The notes: a model not told the origin generated them from the sequence alone. Counted from the stretch's first letter, positions 8,165 to 63,245 are shown. The stretch: DNA of 64,000 nt from Octopus vulgaris (GCA_951406725.2 OX597814.1:22444001-22508000), one strand, 5' to 3'. Made by a program: numbers and translations.

Positions 8165-8490
8165 TATTTATTACCAAATTGACGTGGCAGTCCAGAGAAA
8201 TAGGACGAATACTGATGTTGATTAGCTCAGAGAGGCGATCGCTTCTAGCTAGCTATATGATGCACATACCTGCGTCCATAAACCTTCGAACAGGGGAGGT
8301 CATCAGCTTCCCTTTGCTGGTTTGGCATCCACAGACCGGTTTCGGAGTAGCTTCTCCTCATCAATGTGGAGCGGCCGAGTCCAGCTGGGGTTGCTGTAGA
8401 TCTCTGTTCGATGGTTTTGCTTATATACATTCAGTGATTTTCAAAAATAGAAATGCTATAATTTCTAAATATCTCTAAAGAGACTATATA
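8161..8490 (-). mobile_element. Diverged retrozyme-like unit related to the 363-bp repeat
   Basis: Shares attagctc..gaggc.atcgc, aaccttcgaaca.gggaggtca, atctctgttcga.ggttt and ttttcaa.aatagaaat with 10755-11480; contains a hammerhead. Confidence 0.8.
8328..8370 (-). ncRNA. Minimal type-I hammerhead ribozyme
   Basis: Minus strand: UCCACA UUGAUGA GGAG aagcua CUCC GAAA CCGG UC^UGUGGA; 6-bp stem I, 4-bp stem II, palindromic stem/loop III, GUC site. Confidence 0.88.
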
Positions 8491-10718: not shown

Positions 10719-10757
<39 letters not shown>

Positions 10758-10983
10758 GAAATATCAAAATTACTAAGTCTCTCTAAAAGAGAACAACGGC
10801 AGCGTTCCCGGAAAATAATAGTTATCGCCATACTAATATGGCATTCTTATAAAAATAAGAATAAAGCTGTCCGCTTATTAGCTCCATGAGGCCATCGCCT
10901 TAAGTTAGCTATTTGATACACAAACTGTATCCATATAACCTTCGAACAAGGGAGGTCAGTCGCTCCACACTACTTGACCGGCA

Positions 10984-11025
10984 GCTACAGACGCGTTTCG
11001 GGGTATTGCCCCTTTTCAATGTAGC
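10984..11025 (-). ncRNA. Minimal type-I hammerhead ribozyme, U3:A8 core variant (copy 1)
   Basis: Minus strand: GCUACA UUGAAAA GGGG caaua CCCC GAAA CGCG UC^UGUAGC; predicted cleavage between 10990 and 10989. Confidence 0.88.
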
Positions 11026-11346
11026 GTAGCCAGACCAGTAGGTGTCGCTTCTGACAATCTCTGTTCGAAGGTTTTATTTACCTAGCTTCGGTGGAATACA
11101 TCCACTTGTTTTCAATAATAGAAATATCAAAATTACTAAGTCTCTCTAAAAGAGAACAACGGCAGCGTTCCCGGAAAATAATAGTTATCGCCATACTAAT
11201 ATGGCATTCTTATAAAAATAAGAATAAAGCTGTCCGCTTATTAGCTCCATGAGGCCATCGCCTTAAGTTAGCTATTTGATACACAAACTGTATCCATATA
11301 ACCTTCGAACAAGGGAGGTCAGTCGCTCCACACTACTTGACCGGCA

Positions 11347-11388
11347 GCTACAGACGCGTTTCGGGGTATTGCCCCTTTTCAATGTAGC
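11347..11388 (-). ncRNA. Minimal type-I hammerhead ribozyme, U3:A8 core variant (copy 2)
   Basis: Same sequence as 10984-11025, offset by 363 bp. Confidence 0.88.
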
Positions 11389-12185
11389 GTAGCCAGACCA
11401 GTAGGTGTCGCTTCTGACAATCTCTGTTCGAAGGTTTTATTTACCTAGCTTCGGTGGAATACATCCACTTGTTTTCAATACATATATATATATACATATA
11501 AATGTGTGTGTGTGTGTGTGTGTAAATATATACTCACTAACATGCATCTAAACACATATAAAGGTGTGTATATAAGTATGTATAAATACATACGTATAGT
11601 TTTCTAACACTCGCATATCAATAGCATTGACAAAAAGATGACTTCAACATTAAGCTATACACAGTATTTCTTTCGCTTAAAATATTTCACTTCATTTATG
11701 AAGTTACATGTGTACAAACTTTCTGTTTCACTACACATTCATTTCATATAAATAATTAATTAATCAATCTTTTGTTGAGGTTTTAGTTAAAAGTTGGATT
11801 AAAAATTGCAAAAATGTGACGCTAAACTCATGTAATCTGTTCAGTATGTATCTGAAACTTTCAGATAAATATTTATACGCTTTTGATTAATTTATTATAG
11901 ATAAGTATTTGAAACATGGCAAAAACGAAAAAAAAAAACAAAAATCAATCATCGAATTTTATTTGATATATTACTATTTGAATAGAAACGCACAAGCCCT
12001 CGCATACACATAAAATTCCACACATGAAAATAGAAAAATCACGCTCACATGTGCGCGTTCAACACATTCACATATTATATGTATTAATATGATGTGTTAC
12101 ATATATATGTATATATGTATGCATATATATATGTATATATATGTATATATATGCATATATATGCATACATACATACATACATACA

Positions 12186-14499: not shown

Positions 14500-17400
14500 T
14501 ACCACACTTGCATACACAGAAGGCAAACACAAAAACACTCGCATGTAAAGAAGACACAAGCAAAACACACTTGTATATAAATGAGACACAAATCAGACAA
14601 GCTTGCAAATAAAGAAGACACAAGCAAGACTCACATGCAAATAGAGAAGACACAAGCAACACACACTTGTATATAAAGAAGACACCATCAAGACACACTT
14701 GCAAATAAAGATGACACAAGCAAAACACATTTGCATATACAAAAAGACACAAGCAAAACACACTTGCATAAAAAACCTCAAACAGATACACTTGCAAATA
14801 AAGAAGACACAAGCAAGAAAAACTTGCAAATAAAAAAGACACAAATAAGGCACGTTTGTATATAACGAAAACACAAGCAAGACACACTTGCATGTAGAGA
14901 AGACACAAGCTAGAAACAACTTTATATAAAGAAGGCACAAGGAAACACACTTTTATATATAAAAGACACAATCAAAATAGACTTGCATATAAACAAGAAA
15001 CAAACAAGACACACTTGTATATAAAGAAGTCACAAGCAAGACACAATTGCTTAGAAATAAGACACAAGCAAGACACTCTTGTATATAAAGAAGTCACAAG
15101 CAGGGTACACTTGCAAATAAAGAAGAAAGAAGCAAGACATGTTGGCATATAAATAAGACGCAAGCAAGAAACATTTGTATATAAAGAAGAGCCAAGCAGG
15201 ATACATTTGCTTAAAAAGATGATCCAGCAAGATACACTTGCACATAAAGAAGACACAAGAAAGACAGTCTTGTATAGTACGAAGATACAAGCAAAGCACA
15301 CTTGCATATTAAGAGGATGGAACGAAGACACACTTGGTATATAAAGAAGACACAAGCATGACACCCTTGCATAGAAAGAGGACAAAAGCAAGACACACTT
15401 GTATATAACGAACACACTAGCAGGACAAGCAGATAAAGACGATACGAACATGACACACAAATAAAGAAGGCAGAAGCAAGACACACCTTCAAATAAAGAA
15501 GACACAAACAAGTCACACTTGCTTATAAAGAAAGCACAAGCAAGAGGCACTTGCATGTAAAGAAGACACACGCTAGACATGCTTGTATATAACGAAAATA
15601 CTAGCCAGACACATCTGTATTTAAAGAAAACAGAAGTAAGTCACTTTCAAATAAAGAAGCCATAAACAAGACACGCATATAAAGAAGATACGAGCAAGCA
15701 AGACATACTTGCATAAGAAATAAAATCAGGCAAGACACACTTGCCAATAAAGAAGACAGAAGCAAGACATACATTTATATAAAGAAGACACAGGCAAGAC
15801 TCACCTGTATATAAAGAAGTCTGAAGTAGGACACACTTGCATATAAAGAAGACACTGGCCAGATACACTTGCAAATAAAGAAGACGCAAACAAGAAACAC
15901 TTATATATACAAAGAAGACACAAGTAAGACACACTTGCATGTAATGAAGACGCAAACAAGAAACACTTATATACAAAGAAGACACAAGTAAGACACACTT
16001 GCATGTAATGAAGACGCAAACAAGAAACACTTATATATACAAAGAAGACACAAGTAAGACACACTTGCATGTAATGAAGACGCAAACAAGAAACACTTAT
16101 ATACAAAGAAGACACAAGTAAGACACACTTGCATGTAATGAAGACGCAAACAAGAAACATTTATATACAAAGAAGACACAAGTAAGACACACTTGCATGT
16201 AATGAAGACGCAAACAAGAAACACTTATATACAAAGAAGACACAAGTAAGACACACTTGCATGTAATGAAGACGCAAACAAGAAACACTTACATACAAAG
16301 AAGACACAAGTAAGACACACTTGCATGTAATGAAGACGCAAACAAGAAACACTTACATACAAAGAAGACACAAGTAAGACACACTTGCATGTAATGAAGA
16401 CGCAAACAAGAAACACTTACATACAAAGAAGACACAAGTAAGACACACTTACATGTAATGAAGACGCAAGCAAGAAACACTTATATATACAAAGAAGACA
16501 CAAGTAAGATACACTTGCAAATAAAGAAGACGCAAACAAGAAACACTTATATATACAAAGAAGACACAAGTAAGACACACTTGCATGTAATGAAGACGCA
16601 AGCAAGACATACCTGCATATCAAGAAGACAGAAGCAAACGACATTAGCAAATAGAGAAAGCACAAGCAAGGAAGCATATAAAGAGACTATAAACAAGAAA
16701 AGCATGTAAAGAAGACACAAGCAAGACACACTTGTATATAAAAAATACACAAGCAAGGCACACCTGCATATAAAAAGAAAAACAGAAGCAAACCACACTT
16801 GCATGAAAAGAGGGTACAAGCAAAACACACTTGCATAAAACGAAAACTAAAAAAGGACACCCTTGCAAATAAAGACACAAGCAAGAAAAAATTGCATATA
16901 AAGAAGACACAAGCCAGACATAATTGGATCTAAAGAAGACACAAGCAAGACGCACTTTGATGTAAAAAAGACACAGGCAACACTTACTTGGATGTAAAGA
17001 AAACACAGGCAAGGCACACTTGTAAATAAAGAAGACACCAGCAAGACACGCATATAAAGAGGACACAAGTAAGACATTTGCATATAAAGAAGACACAAGC
17101 AAGACAGTTGCATATAAAGATACAAGCAAAAGACACTCGCATATATAGAAGTCAATAGCAGGGTACATATGCATTCAAACAAGACAGAAGCAAGTCACAC
17201 TTCCATATAAAGAAGACACAAGGAAAACATACTTGCATATACAGAAGACAGAAGGATGACACATTTTCATACATAGAATATACAACCCAAATACACTTGC
17301 ATAGAAAGAAGACACAAGCAAGACACTCTTGTACATGACGAAAATACAAGCAAGATACGCATATAAAGAAGAGACGCACAAGACACACTTGCACATCAAG

Positions 17401-18410
17401 AGGACACTTGCAAAAAAGGAGGACACAAGCAAAACACACTTGCATATACAGAAAACACAAACAAGACACACTTGCATATAAAGAAACATAAGCAAAACAT
17501 ACTTGCATAGAAAGAAGATTCAAGGAAAAACACTTACATATAAAGAGGATACAAGTAAGAGACACTTGCTTATAAGGAAGACACAAGGAAGAGACGGATA
17601 TGAAGAAGACACAAGCAAGAAACGCATAAAAAAGAAGACACAAGCAAGACACACTTACATAGAAATAAGACGTAGACAATTAACACTTGAGTATAAAGAA
17701 AACACAAATAAGACACACTTGCATATAAAGAAGACACAAAAAACACACTTGCAGAAGCCATTGGCATATAAAAAAGTCATAAGCAAGACGCACCTTTATA
17801 TAAAGACACAAGTATGACACACTTGCATGTAAAGAAGATGGAAGCAAGACACGTATATACAGAAGATACGAAAAAGAGACACTTACAAATAAAGAAGACA
17901 CAAGCCAAGACACACTTGCATATAAAGAAGGCACAAGCAAGATACGCTTCCATGTGAAAAAGACGGAGGGAACACAGTTTCCTAAAAAGAAGACACAAGG
18001 AAGAGACAGTTGTATATATAAAGAAGACACAAGCGAGACACACTTGCATATACAAAAGACACATGCAAGAAATACTTGCATGTGTAAAGAAGGCAGAAAC
18101 AAGTCACTTTGCATATATTGAAGACGCAAGCCAGACACACTTCCATATAAAACACAGTAGCATAAAAAGAAGTCACAATCAAGAACACCTCCGTATACAG
18201 AAGACACAAGCAAAACGAACTTTTATATAAAGAAGGCACTATCAAGACACACTAGTATATAAAGAAGACGCAAGCAAGACACACTTTTATATAAAGACAC
18301 ACCAAGACACGCATATAACGACGACACAAGCAAGACACGCTTGTATATAAGGAAGTCATAAGCAAACACACCTGCACAGAAAGAAGACACAAGCAAGACA
18401 CACTTGCTTA
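14500..18410. repeat. ~3.9-kb minisatellite of ~32-bp monomers (consensus ~acacacttgcatataaagaagacacaagcaag) with a homogenised 64-bp dimer core
   Basis: Monomer visible throughout; near-identical 64-bp units at ~15880-16600 (ORF starts step by 64: 16160, 16224, 16288, 16352, 16416, 16480). Confidence 0.95.
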
Positions 18411-18689
18411 TGTGTGCATAACTAGTTCTTTGTTCGTTTTTTTACTTGTTTATTGAGCGTACAGTTGGTGGTCTATCAGAGAACAAAACAAGTATCGGAT
18501 TGAAATAAGAAATGGGTCGATATAATCGATGATGATCCATTGAATTGACTCCTTCATTATCGCCGCAATCCAATGACAGGAAGCATTGAAATATTATAAG
18601 AAAAAATGAACAGGGATGACTTGCGTCTAAACAAGAGTAGCAGACTATTCCATGAATATAAATGAAATTATTGGAGAAACTATTGACAG

Positions 18690-32950: not shown

Positions 32951-34276
<1,326 letters not shown>

Positions 34277-34290
34277 CTACCCCCTACCTA
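34277..34290 (-). promoter_or_regulatory. Polypurine tract (also at 37517-37530)
   Basis: TAGGTAGGGGGTAG on the minus strand immediately before the LTR. Confidence 0.85.
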
Positions 34291-34346
34291 AGCTTTTGTC
34301 GACCCGACAAAGCATAACAAACCCCCAGCTCCGAGGGCGAGCTCCA

Positions 34347-36221
34347 TCAGACGTTCCAGGAAGTGGAGGTCCCCTTGGGTGGTTTCTCCTCCGGGGGTCT
34401 CACCTCCCACGGCCACCACTTCAGCACCAGCCACAGGTTGGCACCTTCCCTCTGCGGCTTGGGTAACACCTCCGCCAACGCCGCCAGGCTTCCTACTAGC
34501 CGCCCACAATAGGCGCACCGTCCGAGGAAGTTCCTCAAATCCCTCACACAGGAAGGGTCCGGCCAATCCTTCACAGTGGCCACCTTCCTCAGGGCTCTAT
34601 AGCCCACGTAGCACCTTGCTGTACCATCCCCATTCCGCGCAATTATCGCTGACGACCACGGACTATTCTGTCCTTTCACTGCTCCCTGTCGCCGATATCT
34701 CCTCTTGCGCTGCTGTACTGAGACCTTCCTCCGGCCTCGCTGCTTCCTCAAGCGACAACCGCCTTGGTCGACGAAACGTTCTGCCAGGTCCGTGCGACCA
34801 GCATCCAACAACCCTCGCGACCAACGTCCTGCACTCTTCACCAACGGTTGCTTCTTCCGCAACTGCATCAGCGGACCACGATCTCCCTTAACTTCATCAC
34901 TGCACCGGCAGAACTGACCCCGCCGCTGGTTCACCGTCCGGCGCAGTTCCACGATTTGCCCTCTGCAAATCGCCTGCGCAGCCTTCAATAACTCGGCCGA
35001 CCCAACCAGCGCTCTGTCGGCCTCTGCCTCCACCAGGGTCCAGCCGACCCTCAATTGAGCTCTTACTCCGCACTGCATGTCGGGCTCCACCGGCCCCACG
35101 CAACCATCGAATACAGAGCTCCCCCAAGTGCCAACAAAGCACCAGCGACTCCTTGCGGACCGCTTCCTCAACTGCATCCGTGGGCCACCACCTCCTTCAA
35201 CTGCGTTGCCGTATCGGCAGAGCTGGCCCCACCACTGGTTCGCCATCTGGCACGATTCCTCGATTTGCCTTCTGCAAATCGCCTGTGCCACTTCCAAAAG
35301 ATCGGCCGATCCAGCCAGCGCTCCACCAGCTTCTGCTTCCACTAGGGTCCACCCGACCCTCAATCGAGCTTTCACTAGGCACTGCCTGTCGGGCTCCACC
35401 GGCCCCAAGCAACCATCAACCACAAAGCTCACCCAACGCTGAAGCAGTCTTCCTGGTCTCGGTGGACCCACCACCGTTCGCAGCCGTCTCGCCTCGTCAA
35501 CGGGCCTGGTCCTTTTCCTCACCAGCTTCCGTCCCGCAGGCCTCACAACACACACGCCCGGCCGCCAGTCCATCCACGCCTGTGGCCTCTCCACAGTGGG
35601 AACAATACAGTCCCTCTGGGCCCCAAGAGACAGGAGTCCAGACACCAAAGGACTCGCACACGGCACAACACCTGCCGCGACCATCACACACAGAGCCGGA
35701 ACCTCGGACTCAGCGACATCCGCCCCAGACCTCGCCAGCTCTTCGTCCTGAGCTCCGAGAGACAGGGGTCGAGATGCCAAGGGCTCCAGACACGGAACAA
35801 CAGCATCAGCCATAACACCTTCCACAGGCCTTTTGGTTACTTCAACCTCTACGGGTTCCAAATCACAAGATTTCTTGGGTACAGCGTCACAAATTTCGGC
35901 AACCAGCCCAGGTTCCGCAAACACAGCCGGTCCAGCATCACAGATTTCGGCAACACTTCCTTCACTATCTGTTTCCCTCGATGCTTCGTTCGAGGGGCAA
36001 TCTCTGCCCACAGGACCGTCGCTATCCTCGGTCCAACACCGATCCTTCAAAGCTGACCCATCCGCAACCTCAAGCTCCCGCTGATCTGCCCACAGGCCCT
36101 GTCGCCTCCTGTCCATTCTCTCCACGAACGCGTCCGTCTGCGCCATCTGGCCCCTTAACATCTCCACAATCAGAGCAAGCGAAATCTCCTCGTCTCCGGT
36201 CTGACAACCAGACAAATCCAT
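34347..36221 (-). CDS. Internally deleted gag/pol-derived ORF (624 aa from ATG), copy 1
   Basis: Uninterrupted ORF; RT N-terminal remnant NSPWSSAIIARNGDGTARCYVGYRAL fused to RT C-terminal KVATVKDWPDP..LRNFLGRCAY; no YxDD, RNase H or integrase seen. Confidence 0.75.
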   Translation of the reverse strand: MDLSGCQTGDEEISLALIVEMLRGQMAQTDAFVERMDRRRQGLWADQRELEVADGSALKDRCWTEDSDGPVGRDCPSNEASRETDSEGSVAEICDAGPAVFAEPGLVAEICDAVPKKSCDLEPVEVEVTKRPVEGVMADAVVPCLEPLASRPLSLGAQDEELARSGADVAESEVPALCVMVAAGVVPCASPLVSGLLSLGAQRDCIVPTVERPQAWMDWRPGVCVVRPAGRKLVRKRTRPVDEARRLRTVVGPPRPGRLLQRWVSFVVDGCLGPVEPDRQCLVKARLRVGWTLVEAEAGGALAGSADLLEVAQAICRRQIEESCQMANQWWGQLCRYGNAVEGGGGPRMQLRKRSARSRWCFVGTWGSSVFDGCVGPVEPDMQCGVRAQLRVGWTLVEAEADRALVGSAELLKAAQAICRGQIVELRRTVNQRRGQFCRCSDEVKGDRGPLMQLRKKQPLVKSAGRWSRGLLDAGRTDLAERFVDQGGCRLRKQRGRRKVSVQQRKRRYRRQGAVKGQNSPWSSAIIARNGDGTARCYVGYRALRKVATVKDWPDPSCVRDLRNFLGRCAYCGRLVGSLAALAEVLPKPQREGANLWLVLKWWPWEVRPPEEKPPKGTSTSWNV

Positions 36222-36259
36222 AGCGAAAAAGAACCGATCGAAACGCAACAATCAGGACA

Positions 36260-36277
36260 ATCCCACTTCTGACACCA
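36260..36277 (-). promoter_or_regulatory. Primer binding site complementary to the tRNA-Leu 3' end (also at 39500-39517)
   Basis: TGGTGTCAGAAGTGGGAT, 2 nt from the LTR end. Confidence 0.9.
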
Positions 36278-36279
36278 GT

Positions 36280-37516
36280 TGTTAAGGAACGGACGGGATC
36301 GCCCGCCGTCGCTCGTCCCGAACGGCTCACACAAGTTCCGCCACGGAACCCAGAGAGGAGGAGAGGGGAGAGATACTACAACAACCACAACCTCAGCAGC
36401 ACAGAGATACAGAGGCACAACCCGAGATACAACCCAAAGAGGCAAGGCAACAACTGGCAACACTGGCTTATATTCAAACAACAGTTTATACGACAATTAC
36501 AATTGTTACAACATCAAGATACATCAAAGCATGCACGTGACTACTCAATACATAATACAACATCATGTAACAATTCAAGAGTACACGTCCCAAGACAACA
36601 GTTCTTTAAAGTCTCTTCCTAAACATCAACAGATAACGTTCACAGTTCTTTATAATCTTTTTCTACACATATCAACACAATTCTGAACATAAATACCACA
36701 ATCGACATATCGACAAGTCCTTGACTGTTCTTTTCACTGTTCATTTCTTTTCACTGTCTCTTTACATTGTGACACGCATCAATACACAATCACATACCTT
36801 AATTCCCAACTGAATCACCAGTGTCCCATTCTGCACCTCATCTCTCCGTACATATTCCCTTCTGTGCCGCTAAGTTCTCTCGCATCCCAACTTGCTCCTA
36901 AGATTCCACCGCTTGCTCCTAACTTCCAAGAATCCGACTGTGTTCTTCGAGGACCGACCACCGACTGCAAGATCCGTCTGTGTTCTTCGACGACCGCTCA
37001 ACGACTGCCCTTCTTGACGACCAACTGCGAACTGCCCAAAACCTCACCTCCTCGTCCTGACTTCCACTACCTCATCTCCCTCTCTCTATATCGCTCATAC
37101 CCTTTCTAACTGCTCTCTTATCCTTATACTCTATCTCTATTCTCAATCTGTCCCTTACTGCTTATAGCCTCTCTATCTGCTCTCTGATCTTACTGCCTAT
37201 CTCTATCACCTGCTGCCTATTACCCTCTCTATCTGTCCCTTTTCTCTTACTGCCTATCTCTATCGCCTGCTGCCTATTACCCTCTCTTGACAGCTCTACC
37301 ATACTCTCTGCCTGTCCCTCTCTGCCCCCTCATCCTCTCTCACGACATATTCAAGGGGTGTCCAGAGCGACCCCTAATTCACCCGCACAAGGTCACAGGT
37401 CATTCCAAAACCCATTAGTCCTCCATTAAACAAAAGACTGTGACTTTTCTACTAGACATGCCGGAACCATCATTCCTATGTGGGTCAGAAACACTGCACT
37501 AGTTAAACCCGTAACA
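36280..37516 (-). repeat. Middle LTR
   Basis: TGTTAAGG...CCGTAACA; appears identical to 39520-40756. Confidence 0.95.
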
Positions 37517-37586
37517 CTACCCCCTACCTAAGCTTTTGTCGACCCGACAAAGCATAACAAACCCCCAGCTCCGAGGGCGAGCTCCA

Positions 37587-39461
37587 TCAGACGTTCCAGG
37601 AAGTGGAGGTCCCCTTGGGTGGTTTCTCCTCCGGGGGTCTCACCTCCCACGGCCACCACTTCAGCACCAGCCACAGGTTGGCACCTTCCCTCTGCGGCTT
37701 GGGTAACACCTCCGCCAACGCCGCCAGGCTTCCTACTAGCCGCCCACAATAGGCGCACCGTCCGAGGAAGTTCCTCAAATCCCTCACACAGGAAGGGTCC
37801 GGCCAATCCTTCACAGTGGCCACCTTCCTCAGGGCTCTATAGCCCACGTAGCACCTTGCTGTACCATCCCCATTCCGCGCAATTATCGCTGACGACCACG
37901 GACTATTCTGTCCTTTCACTGCTCCCTGTCGCCGATATCTCCTCTTGCGCTGCTGTACTGAGACCTTCCTCCGGCCTCGCTGCTTCCTCAAGCGACAACC
38001 GCCTTGGTCGACGAAACGTTCTGCCAGGTCCGTGCGACCAGCATCCAACAACCCTCGCGACCAACGTCCTGCACTCTTCACCAACGGTTGCTTCTTCCGC
38101 AACTGCATCAGCGGACCACGATCTCCCTTAACTTCATCACTGCACCGGCAGAACTGACCCCGCCGCTGGTTCACCGTCCGGCGCAGTTCCACGATTTGCC
38201 CTCTGCAAATCGCCTGCGCAGCCTTCAATAACTCGGCCGACCCAACCAGCGCTCTGTCGGCCTCTGCCTCCACCAGGGTCCAGCCGACCCTCAATTGAGC
38301 TCTTACTCCGCACTGCATGTCGGGCTCCACCGGCCCCACGCAACCATCGAATACAGAGCTCCCCCAAGTGCCAACAAAGCACCAGCGACTCCTTGCGGAC
38401 CGCTTCCTCAACTGCATCCGTGGGCCACCACCTCCTTCAACTGCGTTGCCGTATCGGCAGAGCTGGCCCCACCACTGGTTCGCCATCTGGCACGATTCCT
38501 CGATTTGCCTTCTGCAAATCGCCTGTGCCACTTCCAAAAGATCGGCCGATCCAGCCAGCGCTCCACCAGCTTCTGCTTCCACTAGGGTCCACCCGACCCT
38601 CAATCGAGCTTTCACTAGGCACTGCCTGTCGGGCTCCACCGGCCCCAAGCAACCATCAACCACAAAGCTCACCCAACGCTGAAGCAGTCTTCCTGGTCTC
38701 GGTGGACCCACCACCGTTCGCAGCCGTCTCGCCTCGTCAACGGGCCTGGTCCTTTTCCTCACCAGCTTCCGTCCCGCAGGCCTCACAACACACACGCCCG
38801 GCCGCCAGTCCATCCACGCCTGTGGCCTCTCCACAGTGGGAACAATACAGTCCCTCTGGGCCCCAAGAGACAGGAGTCCAGACACCAAAGGACTCGCACA
38901 CGGCACAACACCTGCCGCGACCATCACACACAGAGCCGGAACCTCGGACTCAGCGACATCCGCCCCAGACCTCGCCAGCTCTTCGTCCTGAGCTCCGAGA
39001 GACAGGGGTCGAGATGCCAAGGGCTCCAGACACGGAACAACAGCATCAGCCATAACACCTTCCACAGGCCTTTTGGTTACTTCAACCTCTACGGGTTCCA
39101 AATCACAAGATTTCTTGGGTACAGCGTCACAAATTTCGGCAACCAGCCCAGGTTCCGCAAACACAGCCGGTCCAGCATCACAGATTTCGGCAACACTTCC
39201 TTCACTATCTGTTTCCCTCGATGCTTCGTTCGAGGGGCAATCTCTGCCCACAGGACCGTCGCTATCCTCGGTCCAACACCGATCCTTCAAAGCTGACCCA
39301 TCCGCAACCTCAAGCTCCCGCTGATCTGCCCACAGGCCCTGTCGCCTCCTGTCCATTCTCTCCACGAACGCGTCCGTCTGCGCCATCTGGCCCCTTAACA
39401 TCTCCACAATCAGAGCAAGCGAAATCTCCTCGTCTCCGGTCTGACAACCAGACAAATCCAT
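37587..39461 (-). CDS. Internally deleted gag/pol-derived ORF, copy 2
   Basis: Translation identical to copy 1. Confidence 0.75.
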   Translation of the reverse strand: MDLSGCQTGDEEISLALIVEMLRGQMAQTDAFVERMDRRRQGLWADQRELEVADGSALKDRCWTEDSDGPVGRDCPSNEASRETDSEGSVAEICDAGPAVFAEPGLVAEICDAVPKKSCDLEPVEVEVTKRPVEGVMADAVVPCLEPLASRPLSLGAQDEELARSGADVAESEVPALCVMVAAGVVPCASPLVSGLLSLGAQRDCIVPTVERPQAWMDWRPGVCVVRPAGRKLVRKRTRPVDEARRLRTVVGPPRPGRLLQRWVSFVVDGCLGPVEPDRQCLVKARLRVGWTLVEAEAGGALAGSADLLEVAQAICRRQIEESCQMANQWWGQLCRYGNAVEGGGGPRMQLRKRSARSRWCFVGTWGSSVFDGCVGPVEPDMQCGVRAQLRVGWTLVEAEADRALVGSAELLKAAQAICRGQIVELRRTVNQRRGQFCRCSDEVKGDRGPLMQLRKKQPLVKSAGRWSRGLLDAGRTDLAERFVDQGGCRLRKQRGRRKVSVQQRKRRYRRQGAVKGQNSPWSSAIIARNGDGTARCYVGYRALRKVATVKDWPDPSCVRDLRNFLGRCAYCGRLVGSLAALAEVLPKPQREGANLWLVLKWWPWEVRPPEEKPPKGTSTSWNV

Positions 39462-39519
39462 AGCGAAAAAGAACCGATCGAAACGCAACAATCAGGACAA
39501 TCCCACTTCTGACACCAGT

Positions 39520-40756
39520 TGTTAAGGAACGGACGGGATCGCCCGCCGTCGCTCGTCCCGAACGGCTCACACAAGTTCCGCCACGGAACCCAGAGAGGAG
39601 GAGAGGGGAGAGATACTACAACAACCACAACCTCAGCAGCACAGAGATACAGAGGCACAACCCGAGATACAACCCAAAGAGGCAAGGCAACAACTGGCAA
39701 CACTGGCTTATATTCAAACAACAGTTTATACGACAATTACAATTGTTACAACATCAAGATACATCAAAGCATGCACGTGACTACTCAATACATAATACAA
39801 CATCATGTAACAATTCAAGAGTACACGTCCCAAGACAACAGTTCTTTAAAGTCTCTTCCTAAACATCAACAGATAACGTTCACAGTTCTTTATAATCTTT
39901 TTCTACACATATCAACACAATTCTGAACATAAATACCACAATCGACATATCGACAAGTCCTTGACTGTTCTTTTCACTGTTCATTTCTTTTCACTGTCTC
40001 TTTACATTGTGACACGCATCAATACACAATCACATACCTTAATTCCCAACTGAATCACCAGTGTCCCATTCTGCACCTCATCTCTCCGTACATATTCCCT
40101 TCTGTGCCGCTAAGTTCTCTCGCATCCCAACTTGCTCCTAAGATTCCACCGCTTGCTCCTAACTTCCAAGAATCCGACTGTGTTCTTCGAGGACCGACCA
40201 CCGACTGCAAGATCCGTCTGTGTTCTTCGACGACCGCTCAACGACTGCCCTTCTTGACGACCAACTGCGAACTGCCCAAAACCTCACCTCCTCGTCCTGA
40301 CTTCCACTACCTCATCTCCCTCTCTCTATATCGCTCATACCCTTTCTAACTGCTCTCTTATCCTTATACTCTATCTCTATTCTCAATCTGTCCCTTACTG
40401 CTTATAGCCTCTCTATCTGCTCTCTGATCTTACTGCCTATCTCTATCACCTGCTGCCTATTACCCTCTCTATCTGTCCCTTTTCTCTTACTGCCTATCTC
40501 TATCGCCTGCTGCCTATTACCCTCTCTTGACAGCTCTACCATACTCTCTGCCTGTCCCTCTCTGCCCCCTCATCCTCTCTCACGACATATTCAAGGGGTG
40601 TCCAGAGCGACCCCTAATTCACCCGCACAAGGTCACAGGTCATTCCAAAACCCATTAGTCCTCCATTAAACAAAAGACTGTGACTTTTCTACTAGACATG
40701 CCGGAACCATCATTCCTATGTGGGTCAGAAACACTGCACTAGTTAAACCCGTAACA
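39520..40756 (-). repeat. 5' LTR
   Basis: TGTTAAGG...CCGTAACA; followed on the minus strand by the PBS. Confidence 0.95.
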
Positions 40757-59049: not shown

Positions 59050-59080
<31 letters not shown>

Positions 59081-59162
59081 TTTATTTAAAGCATATTACT
59101 CTACCACTGGTATTTGAGTACTCTTTTTTCCACCTTGTTTCACATTTATGTGTTTATTCCGG

Positions 59163-59193
<31 letters not shown>

Positions 59194-59431: not shown

Positions 59432-59500
<69 letters not shown>

Positions 59501-59581
59501 AAGGGTGAAAAGGAACACACGAGTTGATATATATGAAAAAATAAGTCAAAAATAGAAAATGCTAAAATAATTTATAGTGAA

Positions 59582-59629
59582 CATTTCAGTACCGGTTTCA
59601 GTCATTTTGAGACCTTTTCAACTGTAACG
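59582..59629 (-). ncRNA. Minimal hammerhead ribozyme (U3:A8) in the Penelope 3' end
   Basis: Minus strand: cguuaCAG UUGAAAA GGUC ucaaaau GACU GAAA CCGG UA^CUG aaaug. Confidence 0.78.
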
Positions 59630-60412
59630 ATTAAATAATTAAATTTAGAAAAATTAGAAGAAAAGTTTTTTTAAAAGAATATTTCTATAGTAGTGTTCAG
59701 ATTTAAGTGGCATTCTGCCTTTCTCTGACTCCCTTGTTTGCACTTGTGTGTCGGAGGTCGTTGTGAGTTCTTGGAAGGGTAGTAGAGGAAGAAGGCTGGT
59801 GGGGAAAGGGGGATGGGAGAATCTGGGAGTGCCCTGATGGTCGTATTTTGAATGGTCAGTGGCGGCTGGCAGTCTCAGTTCAATTCAGGAGAATATTTAT
59901 ATTGACAGGCTTGTTTATAGAATTAGCGTAGGTGTTATACTAAAAAACATTAGTGACAAAGTTAAGGGGTGGGGGTGGAGAAGTAGAGGAAGAAGAAGAA
60001 GAAGAAGAAGGAGAAGGAGAAGATGACGATGATGGTGGTGGTGGTGATGATTATGACGACGATGATGATGATAATGATGATGATGAAGAAGAAGAAGAAG
60101 AAGAAGGAGGAGAAGGAGAAGATGGTGGTGATGATGATGACGACGATGATGATGATAATGATGATGATGAAGAAGAAGAAGAAGAAGAAGGAGGAGAAGG
60201 AGAAGATGGTGGTGATGATGATGACGACGATGATGATGATAATGATGATGATGAAGAAGAAGAGGAAGAAGAAGAAGAAGAAAAAAACAGAGAAGGGGGA
60301 ATATGAATGGGTGTAAGTATAGCTATGAAGGGGCTGATTAGTAATGGATTCTATGGAGTGTAATATGTGTGTGTGTATATATATTTTTCTTTTATTCTAA
60401 AGTTGAGGTATA

Positions 60413-62233
60413 TTAATTGCTTGTCGTAGACCCGTTTAGAAGTGGCTTGTATTTTATAATAAAGAGATTTTCTTTACTTATTCGTTGTCTCGAGGTTGTA
60501 TCGTCCCTAAATTGGTAGAGGGGGAAAATTCTGAAGTTTGGTGTTTTTTTGTTGGCGCAAGTATCTATGTGTTGGCTAAAAGCTATTTTTCTGTTTTGGG
60601 GAATTTTTATCTGGGATCTGTGCAGGGCCATTCGTTTACGCAAACCATTTTTTGTTTGGCCTATGTACTGCTCTTGACACCCGGAGCAGGTTAGTGAGTA
60701 TATTAGGTTCTCCGAAGCACATGTGAAGTTGCTTTTCACTGTAAACCGTTGTCCCTGCTTGAAGGAGAACTCTGATCCCTCAATTAGATAGTCGCATATC
60801 CCGCAATTGGGTCTTCCACATTTTTTTACTGTCGGCTTCTGTGTTGAGGAGTGAATTCGGGCTTGTGTAAGGAGACTTTTCATGGATCTAGGCTGTCTTT
60901 TGCTTTTTATGATCGTGTGTGTTTGGAGGATTGTGTTCATTCTGTGGTCTTTTTTTAGGAGGGGTATGTTGTGGAGGATGGTGTCGAAGGCTTCGTTATT
61001 GAGAGGGTTGTGTGTGGAGATGTATGGTAAGGCTTTTGGTTGTAAGTTTTTCTTTGTTTTGGGATGTCTCAGTTCCTTGATGTTAAGTTGAAGGGCACGT
61101 TGAATGCACTTGTCAATAAGTGAAGGTGGATAGTTCCTGGTGATTAGGGTATCTTTTAGTTCTTGTAGTCGTGTGTCTCTGGTGTTTGCGTTAGAGACTA
61201 TAGTGCATATCCTTTTTGCTAGATTGAAGGGGATATTCATCCTGGTGTGTCTGGGGTGGCATGAATTGAATGGAAGATATTGCTTAGAGTCTGTAGGCTT
61301 ATAGTATATGTCTGTTTCTATTATATTATTAGCTTTCTTAATGAGGATATCGAGGAAGGGGAGTTGTTGTTGGCTATATTCCATCGTGAATTGGATGTTT
61401 ACGTCCAGTCCGTTTAAAATTTTCTGGAATTCTATGAGTTTTCCTATATTTTTATGCCAAAGGATGAAACAGTCATCTAGATATCTCTTCCAGTTGTTTT
61501 CTATGTAGATGGAGAAAGGGCTGCCATATCTTTCTAGAACCTTACGATACAGACTGATCTCTAGGTATCCTATGACTAGGTTGGCAAAGGAGGGGGCCAT
61601 TCGTGTACCCATCGCAGTCCCCGATTTTTGTCGGTAGAAGTTGTCATTGAAGGCGAAGAAGTTATTTTCCAGGATGAATTTGACCCCTTCTATCACAAAT
61701 TCTTTTTTGATGCGGTGTGGTAGTTCGTTGGCGTGATTCTCTAGCCAGAATTGGATTGCCTCTAGTCCTAGGTTGTGGGGGATATTGGAGTAGAGGTTGA
61801 CTACATCGAAGGATACCAGTATGGTGTTTTTGTTTATAGTATTCGGTAGGTGATTGAGCATATCTAAGTCGTCCCTTATATAGCTTTTGACATGTTTGAG
61901 GAGTGGTTTTAACAGGGTGTCTAAAAAGTTACTGAGGCGGTGGGTTTCGCCTGCGGGACCTGCTATTATGGGTCTCAATTTGAGGTCATTAGGATTAGGG
62001 ACTTTAATTATTTTGTCTGTAGCTATCTTGCATGCGTTGCTTATTTTTTCACTTTTGTGGATCTTAGGTATACCGTAGAATTGGCTAGTTTTACTTGTGA
62101 AATTGGTCATATAATCATATTCTTTGTCGGTGAGCCCTGCTTTGTATGGGTTTAATATGGATTTTAGTTCCCTCATTATTTTTTGTTGACTGTAGTTTTG
62201 TGCCTTTTCATAGTATGTTGTGTCTTCCAGCAT
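60413..62233 (-). CDS. Penelope-like reverse transcriptase / GIY-YIG endonuclease (606-aa open, N-truncated segment; Neptune-like Cys linker)
   Basis: FYGIPKIHK, LRPII, SFDVVNLYSNI, QKSGTAMG, WKRYLDD, FLDI, YYKPT; CGRPNCGIC linker; NLIYSLTC..C...YIGQT..LRKRMALH. Confidence 0.95.
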   Translation of the reverse strand: MLEDTTYYEKAQNYSQQKIMRELKSILNPYKAGLTDKEYDYMTNFTSKTSQFYGIPKIHKSEKISNACKIATDKIIKVPNPNDLKLRPIIAGPAGETHRLSNFLDTLLKPLLKHVKSYIRDDLDMLNHLPNTINKNTILVSFDVVNLYSNIPHNLGLEAIQFWLENHANELPHRIKKEFVIEGVKFILENNFFAFNDNFYRQKSGTAMGTRMAPSFANLVIGYLEISLYRKVLERYGSPFSIYIENNWKRYLDDCFILWHKNIGKLIEFQKILNGLDVNIQFTMEYSQQQLPFLDILIKKANNIIETDIYYKPTDSKQYLPFNSCHPRHTRMNIPFNLAKRICTIVSNANTRDTRLQELKDTLITRNYPPSLIDKCIQRALQLNIKELRHPKTKKNLQPKALPYISTHNPLNNEAFDTILHNIPLLKKDHRMNTILQTHTIIKSKRQPRSMKSLLTQARIHSSTQKPTVKKCGRPNCGICDYLIEGSEFSFKQGQRFTVKSNFTCASENLIYSLTCSGCQEQYIGQTKNGLRKRMALHRSQIKIPQNRKIAFSQHIDTCANKKTPNFRIFPLYQFRDDTTSRQRISKENLFIIKYKPLLNGSTTSN

Positions 62234-63096
62234 AGAGACAACGAATAAGTAAAGAAAATCTCTTTATTACAAAATACAAGCCACTTCTAAACGGGTCTAC
62301 GACAAGCAATTAATATACCTCAACTTTAGAATAAAAGAAAAATATATATACACACACACATATTACACTCCATAGAATCCATTACTAATCAGCCCCTTCA
62401 TAGCTATACTTACACCCATTCATATTCCCCCTTCTCTGTTTTTTTCTTCTTCTTCTTCTTCCTCTTCTTCTTCATCATCATCATTATCATCATCATCGTC
62501 GTCATCATCATCACCACCATCTTCTCCTTCTCCTCCTTCTTCTTCTTCTTCTTCTTCATCATCATCATTATCATCATCATCGTCGTCATCATCATCACCA
62601 CCATCTTCTCCTTCTCCTCCTTCTTCTTCTTCTTCTTCTTCATCATCATCATTATCATCATCATCGTCGTCATAATCATCACCACCACCACCATCATCGT
62701 CATCTTCTCCTTCTCCTTCTTCTTCTTCTTCTTCTTCCTCTACTTCTCCACCCCCACCCCTTAACTTTGTCACTAATGTTTTTTAGTATAACACCTACGC
62801 TAATTCTATAAACAAGCCTGTCAATATAAATATTCTCCTGAATTGAACTGAGACTGCCAGCCGCCACTGACCATTCAAAATACGACCATCAGGGCACTCC
62901 CAGATTCTCCCATCCCCCTTTCCCCACCAGCCTTCTTCCTCTACTACCCTTCCAAGAACTCACAACGACCTCCGACACACAAGTGCAAACAAGGGAGTCA
63001 GAGAAAGGCAGAATGCCACTTAAATCTGAACACTACTATAGAAATATTCTTTTAAAAAAACTTTTCTTCTAATTTTTCTAAATTTAATTATTTAAT

Positions 63097-63144
63097 CGTT
63101 ACAGTTGAAAAGGTCTCAAAATGACCGAAACCGGTACTGAAATG
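63097..63144 (+). ncRNA. Minimal hammerhead ribozyme (U3:A8) in the inverted Penelope end
   Basis: cgttaCAG TTGAAAA GGTC tcaaaat GACC GAAA CCGG TA^CTG aaatg; predicted cleavage after 63136. Confidence 0.82.
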
Positions 63145-63187
63145 TTCACTATAAATTATTTTAGCATTTTCTATTTTTGACTTATTT

Positions 63188-63245
<58 letters not shown>

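Follow-up and report, generated by a model that had tools for sequence, protein, structure and literature searches.

The window analysed here, a stretch of 64,000 nucleotides (nt) from Octopus vulgaris (GCA_951406725.2 OX597814.1:22444001-22508000), contains two mobile elements with hammerhead ribozyme motifs. One is a dimer of a noncoding 363-bp retrozyme, the other a Penelope-like element of a family that we call A. We find that the 363-bp retrozyme is almost certainly mobilised by a Penelope-type enzyme. That it is copied in trans by enzymes of the clade of family A and its sister family J is probable, although we say so with distinctly less confidence, and A is not identifiable as the sole partner.

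The enzyme that moves animal retrozymes has been proposed but not shown in the literature passages available to us (here and below, papers are cited for such passages). The octopus genome holds several young retrozyme families together with at least three young, intact Penelope families, of which A and J are two-ended and F is single-ended. Because these families differ in their footprint, the question becomes testable in this genome. The initial annotation of the window proposed that a lineage like its Penelope element could mobilise the 363-bp family. Footprint, ages and intact copies support this; the hammerhead core and target cited for it discriminate poorly.

The insertion footprint of the retrozyme

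Insertions were sampled in coordinate order from pattern listings, giving 58 retrozyme loci and 43 loci of family A (genome-wide scans refer to the 2.8-Gb genome). Each family has two fixed 3' end points, 30 nt apart in A and 60 nt apart in the 363-bp unit, where they lie at positions 1 and 61. In both families two-armed insertions carry their arms back-to-back. All 13 two-armed A loci (13/43) combine one long with one short end. Among the 37 two-armed retrozyme loci (37/58), 34 do the same, three have one aberrant end and none is long+long or short+short. Insertion ends abut (TA)n in 83 of 91 cases for the retrozyme and 52 of 55 for A, while (TA)n accounts for a background of 4.4% of window positions. 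The ages of the two families overlap: median pairwise identity is 0.979 and 0.973 in the retrozyme samples and 0.962 in A.

A tail of this kind is described as unique to Penelope-like elements, its length being the gap between two start sites of the reverse transcriptase (RT) (PMC11167929). The footprint is good evidence that a Penelope enzyme moves the 363-bp family, far better evidence than the ribozyme. We infer that each insertion arm is one complementary DNA (cDNA) primed from one strand. The comparison of A with the retrozyme that the initial annotation called for yields a common (TA)n target and overlapping ages, but a core that many other families carry as well.

The window copy of the retrozyme is single-armed and lies on the minus strand (10755..11480). 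It consists of two 100% identical units, and its long 3' end, at 10755, abuts a (TA)17 target (10721..10754). Both units carry an identical predicted canonical type I hammerhead (10984..11025 in unit 1 and 11347..11388 in unit 2, minus strand) with the sequence GCUACA UUGAAAA GGGG CAAUA CCCC GAAA CGCG UC UGUAGC. It has a U3:A8 core, a 6-bp helix I, a 4-bp helix II and the palindrome ACGCGU. In the genome this pattern has 1,156 matches (reversed-pattern control 0), and leaving core position 7 open adds 309 (control 12), with U3 present in 99 of the first 100. An older subfamily has the core UUGACAA, that is, position 7 is free.

Arrays of the family run from one to about seven units. The unit is noncoding, with no homology to RT or endonuclease, and its size, tandem layout and canonical hammerhead fit the retrozymes without long terminal repeats (non-LTR retrozymes), whose units measure about 170-400 nt. 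Across both start sites it weakly resembles another retrozyme, C (z 1.4 to 4.2), a likeness that points to an old retrozyme lineage. Relatives and other retrozymes were also seen: an old relative of the unit in the window (8221-8436, 71% over 220 nt) and further families (L235, L525-L531, L547), namely retrozyme C itself, with units of 358-360 bp and either core type, and one of 360 bp with U3:A8 and CAUG.

Alternatively, the 363-bp unit could be a pseudo-LTR that became detached from a Penelope family of its own, now extinct or present in few copies. Such an origin has been proposed for frog retrozymes, 24 of 57 Xenopus families of which match annotated elements, nearly all with Penelope-like termini (bioRxiv 10.64898/2026.07.22.740005). 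The loci read, about 124 of many hundred, leave room for such a parent. Yet none of these loci shows a unit running into an RT or endonuclease frame of its own. An RT-coding parent beside L005, L027 and L126 was considered and rejected, as the RT matches there are separate insertions. Outside the ribozyme, the unit resembles retrozyme C and not the ends of the Penelope-type families A, B, D, F, G, H and J. Moreover, an extinct parent could not explain retrozyme copies at 99-100% identity. We regard this origin as very unlikely.

A route without Penelope enzymes, through a resident long interspersed nuclear element (LINE) or through copying at the DNA level, has least in its favour and is barely credible. 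A young Tx1-like LINE (with APE, RT and a CCHC ORF1, ORF denoting an open reading frame) does sit in the 363-bp unit at 20 of the 30 loci read, the 19 best matches among them, and always at one site directly upstream of the hammerhead (loci L446, L447 and L449-L470). It leaves a 17-bp duplication of unit positions 282-298, however, whereas the retrozyme ends at positions 1 and 61, in (TA)n, and has inverted arms. This end structure largely excludes the route, and the LINE is a parasite of the 363-bp repeat, not its vehicle. Older relatives of the LINE end before ATAC; one of them (L476) ends at what looks like the 5' end of a U1 small nuclear RNA.

Candidate Penelope families

If a Penelope enzyme moves the retrozyme, which family supplies it? 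Hammerhead core and TA target are too widely shared to pair elements. The pattern U3:A8/CCGG has 3,416 genome matches (control 16) and U3:A8/CATG has 2,754 (control 189), so that U3:A8 totals about 7,600 with the two CGCG counts included; C3:G8 with CSSG has 498 (control 418). The control counts for the retrozyme and CCGG patterns show that both motifs are far more frequent than chance. U3:A8 is carried at least by the Penelope-type families A, B, D, H and J and by three retrozymes, namely 363, C and the other 360-bp family. Retrozyme C occurs with both U3:A8 and C3:G8, in versions of the same layout that are 88% alike over 311 nt. Hence the U3:A8 swap is labile.

In RT trees, which contain unnamed relatives only and no named Neptune references, A and J are sisters that H and B join, and all four carry U3:A8. 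The six hammerheads read from relatives in other animals all have C3:G8, in combination with the same 4-nt palindromes. On these sequences U3:A8 does track one RT clade in this genome. The shared core is best read as a local majority variant and not as a pairing signal; the wide spread and lability of U3:A8 rule it out as a sign of partnership. Perhaps the 363-bp unit inherited its core from the A/J clade. The target is no more selective: all Penelope-type families read have their ends in (TA)n, and among these are F and G, which have C3:G8 cores.

Sequence outside the ribozyme does not single out A either. The absence of visible homology between the two elements, already remarked on in the initial annotation, holds when local scores are compared with shuffles (z -0.6 and -0.2). 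Downstream of the ribozyme, the 363-bp unit scores at chance level against the ends of all seven Penelope-type families. One weak exception is the older 363 subfamily, which upstream reaches z 2.6 with A.

Family J is the closest competitor of A. It was found through a GIY-YIG search, in which 150 of 6,136 candidates were scored and 30 read, 20 of these being J. Its ORF2 has 781 codons, is 67% identical to that of A and is open in 16 of 17 long copies, which were mostly chosen for that. J has a U3:A8 core and two ends about 30 nt apart. Three of the 17 copies are two-armed, all long+short, and median pairwise identity is 0.984 on the selected set. J thus equals A in every test that A passes, and A is not the sole qualifying family.

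We therefore think it unlikely that the 363-bp family has A as its dedicated partner, a special case of copying by the A/J clade. A supplies more of the first 100 U3:A8/CCGG matches than any other family; it is young, intact and two-armed, and both its core and that of the retrozyme read UUGAAAA. But core position 7 is free, the older 363 subfamily having UUGACAA, and the start sites show no homology. At least three U3:A8 retrozyme families have an equal claim on A. Besides sharing the traits of A, J holds the only join to a retrozyme within the clade. The specific partner of the 363-bp family is unproven.

Of the remaining families, B was rejected as a partner because it is too old (median identity 0.827). 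F is young and intact, with copies at 99-100% identity and 3,288 exact core matches. At 26 of 30 loci its copies stop at a single fixed end, and none is longer; of the other four, two alignments broke early and two stayed unclear. No inverted arm lies within 1.5 kb of an anchored F copy in these 30 loci, and inspection by eye found no inverted pair among the first 100 F matches listed. Such single-ended, tail-less insertions are unusual for a Penelope-like element. The core of F reads CUGUUGA (U at position 6), and some copies have one long ORF (L229-L234, L416-L445). Copies of G are very small two-armed insertions that lie in (TA)n, carry a C3:G8 hammerhead and have a tail of 80 nt. Animal-type Penelope elements also turned up on short contigs labelled as bacterial genomes (L317-L325), which are probably host DNA.

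Joins between retrozyme and Penelope copies were surveyed in 124 distinct retrozyme loci and 121 A locus records, leaving out joins to the 3' end of B. A lies within 1.5 kb of a retrozyme at three of the 124 loci, always with a TA run between. F does so at four loci, at one of which, L356, it is directly joined. J does so once and is joined through a 156-nt filler free of TA (L402/L609). At L609 (G000:C3:70145282-70147960) the order is TA, long retrozyme arm, 44 nt of inverted retrozyme, filler, J to its short end, and TA. As there is one event each, the joins do not rank the partner families; they show only that none favours A.

Several observations weigh against copying by the A/J clade. None of the 124 retrozyme loci has a direct join between A and 363, and none of the 121 A records contains a piece of 363. 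The one direct join involves F, a family outside the clade: at L356:5731-7815 its 3' part meets position 317 of the 363-bp unit with a microhomology of 2 nt. The opposite arm there is pure 363 and finishes at the short end, and no retrozyme remainder lies beyond F. Both this join and that at L609 could have arisen when an element inserted later and the target was deleted. A and the 363-bp unit have no 3' or RT-start sequence in common, and their tails differ in length, about 30 nt in A and J and 60 in the 363-bp family. The lability of U3:A8 counts on the same side, and so does the lack of an RT-coding parent of G in 28 loci. Finally, the survey of Penelope families is partial, comprising the 150 scored of 6,136 GIY-YIG candidates and leaving out Naiad elements, which also show (TA)n and inversions (PMC8557442).

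The main mobiliser might hence lie outside the clade and be F, an unseen parent of G, a Naiad or another unsampled family. F is abundant as well as young, and its junction at L356 is direct. G combines a C3:G8 core with a tail and two-armed insertion in (TA)n, and retrozyme C keeps its layout with both core types. In addition, a study that annotated the repeats of an octopus genome counts 31 Penelope-like families as recently active (PMC13282606). However, F inserts with a single arm and a single end, unlike the 363-bp family, and the 28 loci of G revealed no parent that codes for an RT. On balance we consider a mobiliser outside the clade rather unlikely, and copying in trans by A/J enzymes the better explanation.

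How would copying by A/J enzymes proceed? The RT/endonuclease would cut a TA tract with a nick in each strand, as in vitro work on another Penelope protein suggests. Reverse transcription would begin at two internal sites of the bound RNA, and the two cDNAs would grow toward each other and be joined by microhomology. Recognition of the retrozyme RNA would be loose or structural, since around its start sites the 363-bp unit does not resemble A, J or F in sequence.

L609 has the layout that use of both RNAs by one complex would produce. After cutting a TA tract, a single Neptune-type complex may be able to prime the two strands on separate RNAs, one from its own element and one from a retrozyme, each at its own long or short start site. 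Mixed insertions such as L609 would then be fossils of single trans-mobilisation events. We put this forward tentatively, as an idea that could well fail. If true, genome-wide counts of mixed insertions would pair each retrozyme family with its enzymes, and an old retrozyme lineage would parasitise several Penelope families without shared sequence. Our literature search, outside which fell most subscription papers and the supplements of one preprint, returned nothing on mixed retrozyme-Penelope insertions or on a long+short rule for retrozymes.

Family A and its copy in the window

The Penelope copy in the window is an insertion of family A (59498-63199) flanked by two TA tracts (59442..59497 and 63193..63240). 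Both window insertions thus lie in (TA)n, just as the initial annotation stated. The main arm (59498..62236, minus strand) is a 5'-truncated Neptune-like element that finishes at the long 3' end and is 96.7% identical to the full-length copy L095. Its ORF2 remnant (60413..62236, minus strand) is a frame of 616 codons that matches Pfam RVT_1. The frame starts at residue 178 of the 784-codon ORF2 of family A and contains RT, a C-X4-C-X2-C linker and a GIY-YIG-type endonuclease. The copy (59498-63199) lacks ORF1, the start of the RT frame and the DKG motif. The second arm (62235..63199, plus strand) is an inverted copy of the element's own 3' end and finishes at the short 3' end. The arms meet head-to-head with about 2 nt of overlap, so that the ends of the element form an inverted repeat of 972 nt, 99% complementary. 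Only the main arm has the Penelope tail of about 30 nt between short and long 3' end (59498..59526, minus strand). A low-complexity triplet tract with an 84-bp period lies in the 3' untranslated part (59979..60282, minus strand) and is mirrored at 62444-62747.

Because it is 5'-truncated, this copy, put forward as a candidate autonomous partner, cannot itself be autonomous; it is a dead, two-armed insertion. Its neighbourhood with the retrozyme, which the initial annotation allowed might be chance, is nothing remarkable when families number thousands of copies.

The hammerhead motif reported at both ends of the element is present. Both copies read CAG UUGAAAA GGUC UCAAAAU GAC(U/C) GAAA CCGG UA CUG and are predicted minimal hammerheads with a U3:A8 core and an ACCGGU palindrome. 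The one at 63102..63139 (plus strand) has the family-typical sequence. In the left arm (59587..59624, minus strand) a private change at position 59600 turns the G10.1-C11.1 pair at the base of helix II into G-U (G10.1-U11.1). As the ends are an inverted repeat, and hence one motif copied, the ribozyme counts once and the ends are not two pseudo-LTRs. The element was said to share both the U3:A8 swap and a palindromic stem III with the 363-bp repeat. The swap is indeed common to both, but the palindromes are unlike (ACCGGU in the Penelope copy, ACGCGU in the retrozyme). Helix I differs too, with 3 bp in Penelope, extendable past a mismatch, against 6 bp in the 363-bp unit. Folding predicts helices I and II as expected, though with z scores of only -1.0 and -1.8, and an Rfam scan at E<=1 reports neither hammerhead. 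A hammerhead in the pseudo-LTR of family A is thus a prediction from sequence and folding models, and ribozyme activity of either motif is presumed from these features.

Elsewhere in the genome family A is in better condition. There are 828 to 1,730 first-look candidates, the best 40 of which are at 99-100% identity, and many copies have an intact ORF2. As read from eight long copies, a full element begins and ends with a pseudo-LTR; between the two lie ORF1, which has 410 codons counted from its first Met, and then ORF2 in the -1 frame. The RT passes the Pfam RVT_1 cut-off and has DKG, GTAMG and YLDD at ORF2 residues 159, 383 and 429. The linker ahead of the endonuclease is of the CX2-5CxxC type (C-GRPN-C-GI-C, residues 650-658). 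The C-terminal endonuclease reads LIY-SLT-CSGC-QEQ-YIG (residues 688-703), with a CxxC between the two motifs; against Pfam PF01541 it scores E 3.7e-4 and 21.2 bits, slightly below the cut-off of 22.6, which the sister J passes. A has pseudo-LTRs from partial tandems, an inverted 5' copy and a tail of about 30 nt. Neptune traits are the CX2-5CxxC linker, also found in Nematis, and the (TA)n preference. By its sequence, A would be a Neptune-like member of the Penelope-like elements with endonuclease (EN+).

A departs from the canonical single ORF in that ORF1 and ORF2 overlap in the -1 frame. Without deduplication, 29 of 30 records of A and 14 of 15 of J have the heptamer T TTT TTA at the overlap (for example at L095:5869-5876 in A and near 3135 of L613 in J); the truncated window copy lacks it. 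Among 11 relatives with enough upstream sequence, five have T TTT TTA and two T TTT TTG. The ORF1 of A has a homologue in L237 (E 1e-32), and in one A copy an extra T fuses the two frames. A programmed frameshift is likely from these sequences; no stimulatory structure is predicted behind the A slippery site (z +1.1). Earlier work reportedly found frameshifts in telomeric Penelope-like elements. The legend of Fig. 1 in PMC8557442 permits an ORF1 separated by a frameshift, and the accompanying passages name no clade. Contigs from runs that could only be guessed to be RNA cover both the retrozyme and A but not unique flanking sequence. One passes through a unit junction and one spans the ORF1/ORF2 overlap without a gap; as such contigs reveal neither ends nor strand, level or circularity, they were not used as evidence. 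A search of sequencing runs gave matches in four organisms, none of them listed as RNA.

Three further repeats lie in the window: a fragment of family G (59080-59181), a repeat in three copies spaced about 3.2 kb apart (33531-40527), and a 32-bp minisatellite of about 120 copies with higher-order periods of 64 and 128 bp (14503-18411).

Comparison with known systems

Much of the background to our reading is already in print, including Penelope hammerheads, U3:A8, tails, inversions, the TA bias and the proposal that Penelope mobilises retrozymes. Family A closely resembles the Neptune and Nematis EN+ elements (PMC8557442). These combine RT with a C-terminal GIY-YIG and a CX2-5CxxC linker, have pseudo-LTRs from partial tandems with an inverted 5'-truncated copy and a 30-40-nt tail, and show a (TA)n bias and a hammerhead near the 3' end. 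Unlike their single ORF, A has two frames overlapping at T TTT TTA.

The minimal hammerheads described for Penelope (PMC4209133) have, like ours, a short helix I, a palindromic helix III that implies dimeric cleavage, and occurrences in opposite-strand pairs. The same paper describes the U3-A8 covariation, with about 1,300 hits in Schistosoma mansoni, as does PMC3088659, from which the variant is known to be active. In contrast to the description in PMC4209133, U3:A8 is here the majority core among motifs with 4-nt palindromes and marks one RT clade.

The metazoan non-LTR retrozymes (PMC7229834; bioRxiv 10.64898/2026.07.22.740005) share with the 363-bp family noncoding tandem units, of 350-390 bp, and a canonical type I hammerhead. 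Both sources propose Penelope-like elements as the mobilisers or the origin of retrozymes. Unlike the frog cases, the 363-bp unit has no homology to any pseudo-LTR examined. Our link runs instead through the insertion footprint and chimeric insertions, unlike that in the passages available from the two sources.

Two further systems come close. In PAc, a Poseidon element of the green anole (PMC11167929), two internal RT start sites likewise explain the tail, and targets are AT-rich. Its protein cleaves and extends both strands, but PAc belongs to another clade. The non-autonomous elements of Chlamys, for example MRC1 (PMC8557442), are tandem like the 363-bp family and have Penelope-type termini. 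They generally resemble autonomous families at the 3' end, whereas the 363-bp family does not.

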